A DNA stretch of 4,415 nucleotides from a virus (taxonomy: Duplodnaviria; Heunggongvirae; Uroviricota; Caudoviricetes). Shown here piece by piece: positions 3,001 to 4,415 of the stretch (positions are counted from its first letter, which is position 1; each line of letters starts with the position of its first letter). The position numbers are program-made. The stretch is from the IMG/VR virus record IMGVR_UViG_2693429662_000010, one strand, 5' to 3'.

Positions 3001-4415
3001 ATATCCGGCCTATGCAGCGGCAAATTATATAAAGGGACGGGTTGATGTGAAGTTTGATATTGGTGCTGATGGTACTGTCACCCGAATTGAGTTTATCCGT
3101 TCAGAGCCGCACCATCTGTTTGATGAGCAGGTTGTAAAGGCGATGGCAAAATGGCGATTTGAGAAGGACAGGCCGCGTAAAGGCGTGAAGAAAACGTTTA
3201 TCTTTAGTCCTTCTGCACCCTGATTATTTCATCAGAAATTAATTATCACTCTGTTGTTATTCTGTACATTCCGGCTGGGTAAGTCTTGTTCCGCCGGGTA
3301 TGAAGATGAAATATTGTTGGAGGACAGTGGGTACCTGCTCCTGTAACCGAACGTTCATTTCTCGTTATTTGTCATGCTGGCCGGACGCAGATGCGTTGCA
3401 TCTGTTGCCAGCCTTCTCCTGCAGGCTTCAATAACCCACGCTGAAAAGTTACCGGAACCTTTATGTTCAAGGGCGATATTGATCTGTTCAATCATGTGAT
3501 TGGGGAAACGGATATTGCGGATTGTGGTTCTGCGGGTCCGGTTTTTCGATGACATTTTCTTTCCTCTGGTGACAAGCTATATGGAGAGGATTTTACATGG
3601 CTGTGCTTCGTACGTTACCGGGCAGAATCAAAACTCTGAACACCCGGCGGGTGAATGTCCTGAAGGGTGAACAGCGTCGGGTCAGTGGTAGTGCCCGGGT
3701 TTCCCTCAAGCGTCGTATCTGGCTGAGGGATGCCGGACAGTGCTGTCTCTGTGGGCGTGTGGTTGACCTTTGTGACAGTGAACTTGAGCACCGCATTGCA
3801 CTTCAGTTCGGTGGTGGTAATGAGGAGACGAATCTCTGGACGCTCTGTACCGAATGCCATCGACAAAAGTCTGCTCGTGAAGCGGCGAGTGGTATGCCAG
3901 ACCCGACGCTGCCGGAGGTGTCCGGAGGTAGTGGCAGAGCGGACGACATCATCGGACTGTAACCCGACCCGGGGGGGGGTATCATCCGGCGTAAAAAAAG
4001 ATCGCTTTGGACACCGCCCCCCCTCTCACGCAGAGAAAAAATTCCCGTTTCAGGGCAGTTAACATGTTAACTGGCTGTCCGGGCATTTTTGCGGTTTTTA
4101 TCTTTATTATTCAGTTTGTTGTGCGGAAAAAATGTTAACTGGCTTTTTCAGCAAATGTTAACCAGGCAGCAGTTAACATTTGCGGCATGAGACGCCGGGA
4201 AAAATGGGCTGAACCATACCCGGCTGAGTGCGTTATGGACCCGGGAGGAGGCTGTGCTGACAACGCAAAAACGAAAATTTGCGCTGGCGCTCATGTCCGG
4301 GAAAAACAAAACAGCGTCAGCCATTGCCGTAATGCCAGTCAGTTAAGCAACTGACTGGCTCTTTTTCGGGGCTGTGGGGTATTTCCAGGGCCTCTCCTTT
4401 ACCACTCTCGGGAAG

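Follow-up and report, generated by a model that had tools for sequence, protein, structure and literature searches.

A five-unit repeat array upstream of terS as the probable recognition region for the small terminase subunit of a Stx-type Escherichia coli prophage

Why should a prophage carry five copies of one short motif, in both orientations, in the non-coding DNA just ahead of its terminase genes? The question is raised by IMG/VR record IMGVR_UViG_2693429662_000010 (Caudoviricetes), 4,415 nucleotides that we refer to in full as the window and that are recognisable as late-region DNA from a lambdoid prophage of E. coli, one of the long-tailed, Shiga toxin (Stx)-converting kind (BP-4795, 2851, YYZ-2008, phi330). 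The motif, ATGTTAAC, is repeated between an HNH endonuclease gene and terS, the gene for the small terminase subunit. An initial annotation read the repeats as sites for a dimeric DNA-binding protein and named three candidates: the terminase small subunit, an adjacent ribbon-helix-helix (RHH) protein and a host factor. We conclude that the five units are probably the array by which TerS recognizes the DNA of this Stx-type prophage, a region comparable to lambda cosB.

The five copies of ATGTTAAC lie at 4058-4065 and 4172-4179 on the minus strand and at 4064-4071, 4132-4139 and 4155-4162 on the plus strand. At the composition of the window 0.23 copies are expected, and none of 200 shuffled sequences contained five; similarly, five of the seven GTTAAC copies in the window fall inside the array. 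Units 1 and 2 (GTTAACAT and ATGTTAAC) lie on opposite strands, have their central AT in common and together form a perfect 18-bp palindrome, CAGTTAACATGTTAACTG (4056-4073). Unit 3 (4128-4144, plus strand, AAAAATGTTAACTGGCT) is a direct copy of unit 2 with an identical 3' flank: ATGTTAACTGGC(T) is present twice, at 4064-4076 and 4132-4144, and the two flanks co-vary from lineage to lineage as TGGC, CACC or TACC. Units 4 (plus) and 5 (minus) form an inverted pair, GCAAATGTTAAC-N9-GTTAACATTTGC (4151-4183), with arms at 4151-4162 and 4172-4183 and a spacer of 9 bp. The palindrome, the second copy and the inverted pair are exactly where the initial annotation had placed them. The AT-rich tract that it described as flanked by the motifs is also there: an A+T-rich spacer at 4085-4131, with phased T tracts (T5 at 4086, T5 at 4095, T3 at 4103) and an A6 tract at 4126-4131, parts units 1 and 2 from units 3 to 5 and is probably a bend between the two site groups. 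In the related phage BP-4795 the motif occurs six times in 50 kb, five of them inside the equivalent 122-bp cluster.

Motif clusters do recur at equivalent positions in related prophages, as the initial annotation had proposed to check: all five units are kept in 102 of 102 close relatives sampled from IMG/VR. Among these close relatives the whole interval is conserved and the comparison is uninformative; the test used two diverged lineages carrying the same version of the unit (type A), in which the non-unit positions are about 30% different from the window. The units have been held almost perfectly, with 0 of 38 unit positions changed against 60 of 193 elsewhere in the interval for one lineage, and 1 of 38 against 57 of 193 for the other (Fisher 4e-6 and 1.5e-4, respectively). 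Type A comprises the window, L002, the 102 IMG/VR loci, L150, L316-318, L320-321, L331-332 and BP-4795. In two of its lineages, L150 (about 380-410) and L316 (about 1480-1510), a 10-bp insertion, GTTAACYGGT, provides a sixth GTTAAC one helical turn past unit 4.

A rarer version, type B, is found in 12 complete genomes. The type B loci compared, L146-147, L312-315, L319, L322 and L330, have five different TerS bodies. Type B holds the five unit positions to within 1 bp, as is the case across lineages about 25-30% diverged, and every one of its units reads ATGTTTAY. Position 6 of the unit is T in 20 of 20 type B units and A in 20 of 20 type A units, and the sole further change is C/T at position 8. 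Because the switch alters the same position in every unit, the unit must be asymmetric, with the pattern A(A/C)ATGTT(A/T)A(C/Y); the initial annotation had assumed as much. A third version, type C, occurs in satellites resembling phage-inducible chromosomal islands (PICIs) (L148-149 and L328-329), which have a cos core in common with the phages, units of the form GTTACA and a third version of the TerS helix-turn-helix (HTH). A TTTTT..TTTTT..CTTTTATTATTCA-like stretch is retained in types A, B and C. Type B was reached by protein look-ups, the shared-core scan having yielded type A alone, and searching viral contigs with the type B palindrome gave just unrelated A+T-rich matches. Taken together, conserved units amid diverged flanks and a switch coordinated across all five favour repeated sites for one sequence-specific DNA-binding protein.

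The properties of TerS suggest that it is this protein. Its N-terminus is a Terminase_2 domain (PF03592, residues 2-57) whose profile matches the DNA-binding domain of SF6 G1P (4zc3, 2cmp, 3zqq/3zqp) with hidden Markov model (HMM) E values of 4e-4 to 1e-3. An AlphaFold2 (AF2) model, built on P0002, which is 94% identical to the TerS of L002, has a predicted local distance difference test (pLDDT) score above 90 over residues 1-56 and, by Foldseek, matches the same SF6 domain with a template modelling (TM) score of 0.84 at 1.6 Å; helices are predicted at 4-14, 19-25, 33-41 and 44-56. Type A proteins read ..AI[A/T]AGYS.KTARVKGS.. and type B proteins ..AIEAGYS.KSARCKGS... Once inconsistent positions are dropped, residues 25, 32 and 35 discriminate between the two (E25/S32/C35 in type B against A/T32/V35 in type A), and in the model these residues fall where helix 2 ends and helix 3 begins. 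The type C HTH reads ..AGYS.KTARVKGWQL.. and has different helices 1 and 2. Across more than 120 loci array type tracks TerS HTH type with 0 exceptions. This covariation, and the position of the array after the predicted packaging cut described below, favour the small terminase among the three original candidates, with the units as analogues of the cosB R sites. In addition, P0020 has a type B N-terminus joined to a body like that of the type A protein P0018, and the 3' end of HNH in L312 is of the window type. Array and TerS N-terminal domain therefore behave as a cassette bounded by recombination.

If TerS reads the array, a packaging cut should lie nearby. The HNH endonuclease gene (3597-3962, plus strand; Pfam HNH PF01844, and so annotated in relatives) stands directly upstream of terS-terL, an order constant in all relatives, and its product is recognizable as the packaging accessory nuclease of HK97-type cos phages. 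The window ends before terL, and the class of the large subunit is read from relatives, whose TerL (PF03354 + PF20441) is of the HK97 class, with 23% identity to HK97 gp2 over 489 residues. Systems of this kind, with an HNH protein beside an HK97-class TerL, produce 10-nt 3' ends, as HK97 itself does (PMC11331095). For three phages of this kind the ends are known. The HK97 record ends in G9-N32-GAC followed by CGCCGCCAAA, and its other end restarts with terS at +50. SfV has a G-rich run and then GGAC followed by TGCCCGCCCC, which is the sequenced overhang of SfI (PMC3636060). The phiE125 record ends with a G-rich run and then GGGAC followed by CGCCCGCTTC. Woods et al., in 2002, are said to have identified those ten end bases as the phiE125 overhang.

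The window has the same architecture. A G9 run at 3971-3979 (plus strand), about 35 nt before the predicted cut, represents a conserved element of HK97-type cos regions; G-runs occupy the matching relative place in HK97, SfV, phiE125 and all diverged relatives, and vary from G7 to G9 among close relatives. Given the HNH gene, the HK97-class TerL and the architecture common to HK97, SfV/SfI and phiE125, we place the predicted cosN at 4009-4022 (plus strand), as GGAC (4009-4012) followed by a putative 10-nt 3' cohesive end, ACCGCCCCCC (4013-4022), which makes 4023 position +1. The cos core beyond it, CTCTCACGCAGAGAAAAAATTCCC (4023-4047, plus strand), includes an A6 tract (4036-4041) in a place comparable to the HK97 TerS site at +15 to +29. 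This core is conserved from E. coli to Kosakonia, Erwinia and Serratia, is recognisable in Burkholderiales and Pseudomonas, and is present in the satellites as well. On this predicted numbering the units lie at +36(-), +42(+), +110(+), +133(+) and +150(-), the palindrome spans +34 to +51, the array as a whole runs from about +34 to +161, and terS begins at +232. No phage records with ends falling in this region were found, and the contig ends of draft assemblies were inconsistent and so were not used. Among close relatives, nearly all intergenic variation falls just after the HNH stop codon (in G/C-run length and composition, 3963-3980) or in and next to the predicted cohesive end, at 4006-4008, 4018 and 4023, with C/G at the last two, and 4024-4253 is almost invariant.

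The satellites combine this core with units of their own. L148 and L149 (about 1380-1500) and L328 and L329 (about 1700-2017) have the cos core G-run...GGACACCGC(C/G)CCCC as in Stx-type phages, followed by two GTTACA units in the first pair and seven, with an A+T tract, in the second. Their island neighbours are a primase (D5_N/AAA_25) or AlpA and an own TerS, and L148 also has a 307-aa Phage_capsid homologue; neither terL nor an HNH gene was present in the island DNA seen. For the TerS-encoding PICIs of E. coli the helper has not been identified (PMC6092414), and the sequences described here suggest that Stx-type phages are their helpers. A GC-rich distant relative, L192 (IMG/VR 3300049988_000376, about 9225-9240, minus strand), keeps the G-run...CTCTCACGCAGAGAAAAAATTCC and then has a different palindrome, GTTCGCAggtGCGAAC, perhaps yet another specificity.

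Distant relatives bear on where the array came from. An alignment-based scan recovered 61 loci from other species (L085-L145), whereas a scan with a single TerS query recovered none. In 20 Enterobacterales loci, with TerS proteins 33-49% identical, the HNH gene and G-run are followed by GGACACCGCGCCCCCTCTCACGCACAGAAAAAATTCCCCTCTGGAGGGTGTAAAC/ATGTTAACAGCG, and the homologue of the palindrome is GGAGGGTGTAAAC/ATGTTAACAGC, in which the ATG is the start codon of terS. There ATGTTAAC supplies the start codon of terS and the two codons after it, Leu-Thr, and makes a near-palindrome with the preceding GTAAAC (GTAAAC-AT-GTTAAC); no further GTTAAC was found upstream of terS in these 20 loci. In the interval reaching from 25 nt upstream to 18 nt downstream of the terS start, 30 of the 41 diverged loci among L085-L145, those from Pseudomonas, Burkholderia, Janthinobacterium and Bordetella included, have a GTWAA/TTAAC pair straddling the start, against a value of 1.5e-4 for control segments. 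This DNA site may constrain the Met-(Ala)-Leu-Thr N-terminus and its TTA leucine codon.

The palindrome of the window occupies exactly the ancestral terS start position, a coincidence that the initial annotation had overlooked. There the Shine-Dalgarno sequence GGAGGG has decayed to CAGGGC; terS now begins with GTGCTGACA, 190 bp downstream. Comparison of a Kosakonia locus with Stx phages (BLAST) places an insertion of about 190 bp in the Stx phages after the palindrome. The stretch 4155-4206 (plus strand; ATGTTAAC...ATTTGCGG...CCGGGAAAAA) is collinear with 4254-4306, in three blocks at offsets 1/23/41 versus 1/24/44, and is a possible relic of a duplicated terS 5' end; it matches the terS 5' end of a distant relative at 24 of 32 positions (p about 0.03 by shuffling). 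Based on the ancestral start site, the insertion and this collinearity, we suggest that the array grew from a single near-palindromic start-codon site by duplication of the terS 5' end.

This history raises the possibility that the units are bound, by TerS or another protein, mainly to regulate terS or the late operon rather than to choose what is packaged. In distant relatives the site straddles the Shine-Dalgarno sequence and ATG of terS, an ideal place for translational or transcriptional autoregulation, and SPP1-type pac sites overlap the promoter region of gene 1; such a role is possible above all for the single ancestral site. In the window lineage, however, the palindrome is away from the start codon, and the GTG of terS, 190 bp downstream at 4254, has lost the motif; the array as it now stands is 70-190 bp away from that codon. 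Between 3900 and 4415 no sigma-70-like promoter was detected on the plus strand, the scan giving a single weak minus-strand match and two terminator-like matches that are the IS4 end, and lambdoid late genes are read through from pR'. That the satellites keep the cos core with their own units fits packaging choice. We therefore consider regulation unlikely as the main role of the array.

Nor do the units look like operators of some other regulator, be it YlcI/YnfO (DUF3950), another phage protein or a host nucleoid protein, an idea to which we attach still less weight. The array does sit inside a long non-coding stretch, and YlcI/YnfO, the RHH protein of the initial annotation, is small, possibly DNA-binding and encoded 400 bp away on the other strand. 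Yet YlcI is absent in L146 and frameshifted in L322, with intact arrays in both. Its N-terminal part is common to types A and B, and it falls to 78% among type A loci whose arrays are 97% identical; the lack of covariation between the two disfavours the RHH candidate. The host-factor candidate is disfavoured too, since three unit versions within E. coli are inexplicable by a host factor. In BP-4795, moreover, all but one copy of the motif lie in the array. The HNH protein was also considered as the reader and rejected, because HNH variants do not track array type.

The inverted units could alternatively be nucleic-acid structures, late-mRNA hairpins or DNA cruciforms, with the A-to-T switch as compensatory pairing. 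Units 4 and 5 would make a 12-bp stem, units 1 and 2 are palindromic and unit 3 can pair with unit 1 or 5; in type B both arms change together with pairing kept, and the minimum free energy (MFE) structure uses these stems. But 4040-4262 folds with unremarkable energy (z -0.83), Rfam has no match and no U tract follows the stems. The unpaired direct unit 3 switches like the others, and all units show one identical change, not an assortment of compensatory pairs. The pair seen in distant relatives, A/U-rich and with 2-5 nt separating its arms, is too weak for an RNA hairpin. This explanation seems to us very unlikely. Least credible of all is that the repeats are neutral leftovers of tandem terS 5'-end duplications and now functionless: ATGTTAAC is indeed Met-Leu-Thr of terS in relatives, 4155-4206 does resemble the terS 5' end and Stx phages do have the insertion, but conservation is much higher in the units than in the DNA separating them, and the units remain within 1 bp of their positions across lineages, persist as five in every close relative sampled and, in type B, have switched at the same position in all five.

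Several observations weigh against recognition of the array by TerS as we propose it. The array and the TerS N-terminus are about 70-200 bp apart, and linkage may explain part of their association; the functional case therefore rests mainly on unit conservation and the coordinated switch. HK97, the sole HNH-type phage with a mapped TerS site, has one site, at +15 to +29, and an unrelated TerS fold (PMC11331095). An A-tract core equivalent to that site exists here too, and recognition might depend chiefly on this conserved core and less on the repeats. Among distant relatives whose HTH is very similar, most get by with one site. No match to the integration host factor (IHF) consensus WATCAANNNNTTR with at most one mismatch was found in 4050-4200, the hairpin potential of the inverted units survives the type switch, and the predicted cut is deduced from architecture.

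With these reservations, recognition by TerS can be set out as a model. The N-terminal HTH domains of a TerS oligomer would occupy five copies of the asymmetric unit A(A/C)ATGTTAAC, of which two overlap head-to-head (+36/+42), one lies at +110 and two are arranged tail-to-tail (+133/+150). Bending of the phased T-tract spacer, whether intrinsic or caused by a nucleoid protein, would bring both site groups onto one TerS assembly, which would in turn anchor TerL and its HNH partner on the conserved core (G-run ... GGAC + 10 nt, 4009-4022). TerL and HNH would then make the 10-nt 3' cohesive end, and packaging would start rightwards into terS-terL. The unit sequence and the reading helix of TerS would together be a swappable specificity cassette, with type A (..KTARV..), type B (E25, ..KSARC..) and type C (GTTACA) versions. 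A broader proposal, which we judge close to evenly balanced and advance tentatively, is that the array and the first ~55 codons of terS form a mobile packaging-specificity cassette over a shared HK97-type cosN. It would split the very common Stx-type lambdoid prophages of E. coli, and TerS-encoding PICI-like satellites, into at least three mutually exclusive packaging groups. What separates the groups would in essence be a single base pair in each site (A/T at position 6) together with two or three residues of the TerS reading helix. The cassette would have arisen by duplication of a single site that, in Enterobacterales, Pseudomonas and Burkholderiales, overlaps the start codon of terS.

The surrounding genes are those of a phage late region: the C-terminus of an esterase, holin, lysozyme, Rz, a Rha-type antirepressor, a TonB_C lipoprotein, YlcI/YnfO on the minus strand, HNH, a 291-bp non-coding stretch (3963-4253) and terS. 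The TonB_C-domain lipoprotein gene (2882-3223, plus strand) lies between the lysis and packaging genes, and YlcI/YnfO (3355-3555, minus strand), just upstream of HNH, has a conserved N-terminus and a very variable C-terminus. The Shine-Dalgarno sequence and 5' part of terS span 4243-4329 (plus strand), with GGGAGGAGG at 4243-4251 and the GTG at 4254 (MLTTQKRKFALALMSGKNKTASAIA), and include the start of the HTH domain. An IS4 end (4330-4415, plus strand) splits terS outside the array. Phage homology ends at 4329, many E. coli genomes contain IS4 ends that match 4322-4415 with 100% identity, and a hairpin with a T run at 4334-4365 is part of IS4. The insertion breaks terS after codon 25, and the prophage's own TerS is therefore defective; with cos core and array intact, the prophage could be packaged in trans. 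A different insertion sequence, the IS110-family ISEc20, is annotated in PPompW-type prophages (hits H103-H109) where homology to the window begins, at ~3976, at the G-run between HNH and the predicted cut, and this position may be a preferred target of ISEc20.

The region is present in 3407 of 5426 complete E. coli genomes, at a median of two places per genome, and occurs in Stx1- and Stx2c-converting phages; several copies often share one E. coli genome, some 9800 places are counted in that E. coli set, and pathogenic strains have the region in abundance. If the units set packaging specificity, they would decide which satellites and which co-resident, often defective prophages can be packaged in trans, with consequences for the spread of toxin genes and islands; for comparison, Sp4 is packaged by the Sp14 terminase (PMC2669165). 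The array would also be the first multi-site, HTH-read module for an HNH-assisted 3' cos, the one known mechanism there being the single-site tunnel reading of HK97. It would likewise offer a natural specificity switch of one base and two residues, which is easy to test. It points, too, to candidate helpers of TerS-encoding E. coli PICIs. We found no description of such an array in the searchable literature, which does not prove that none exists.

How, then, does the array compare with known systems? Lambda cosB carries the sites R3-I1-R2-R1 for gpNu1 at about +50 to +170, with Nu1 at 191, and in lambda, 21 and N15 coordinated differences in the sites and the recognition helix confer distinct packaging specificities over a common cosN (PMC4669245). 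The prophage resembles them in several respects: short putative TerS sites in both orientations, lying between the nick, here predicted, and the terminase genes, a similar span, a bend-prone spacer after the first site group, simple and complex versions in related phages, and specificity groups in which site and helix vary together. Lambda, however, makes 12-nt 5' ends, as opposed to the predicted 10-nt 3' end with an HNH helper, and gpNu1 is a winged-HTH protein, not a homologue of the TerS found here with its SF6/SPP1-type domain. There is no sequence similarity. In lambda the IHF site I1 lies between the first and second R sites, whereas here there are only phased T tracts and no IHF consensus, and the first site group is an overlapping palindrome. 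With TerS family, predicted end chemistry and helper nuclease all different, and IHF consensus missing, the array falls outside the lambda cosB family.

HK97 cos is alike in having HNH immediately upstream, an HK97-class TerL, a G-run about 40 nt before the cut (predicted in the prophage), GAC plus a C-rich 10-nt end (likewise predicted), an A/T tract 10-30 bp past the cut and, in the simple relatives, terS about 50 bp past it. But HK97 gp1 lacks an HTH and matches no Pfam family, and its one 15-bp site is read by an arginine clamp as DNA leaves the tunnel (PMC11331095); the prophage has instead an HTH TerS and five repeated units further downstream. The islands resemble known cases of satellite redirection (SaPI TerS-S, E. 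coli PICI Rpp and the cos Staphylococcus aureus pathogenicity islands, SaPIs, with Ccm) in combining a helper-type cos core with their own TerS, own unit and capsid homologue (PMC6092414, PMC6739421, 10.1101/2022.09.08.507074). The known E. coli PICI redirection works through Rpp on lambda-type cos, whereas the islands here encode TerS, and their link to a helper is drawn from sequence. SPP1/SF6 G1P shares the fold of its DNA-binding domain with the TerS studied here (4zc3, 2cmp, 3zqq). According to Chai, Lurz and Alonso in 1995, pacL and pacR reportedly consist of short boxes, repeated around a DNA bend and overlapping the beginning of the gene for TerS. SPP1 and SF6 are nevertheless headful (pac) packagers of Bacillus without HNH or cohesive ends, and their box sequences are unrelated; the HK97-class TerL, the HNH gene and the conserved cos-like core argue for cos rather than headful packaging here. 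Overall, these comparisons suggest that the array is an HTH-read, multi-site recognition region on an HNH-type 3' cos, in which the principle is established and the combination would be new.

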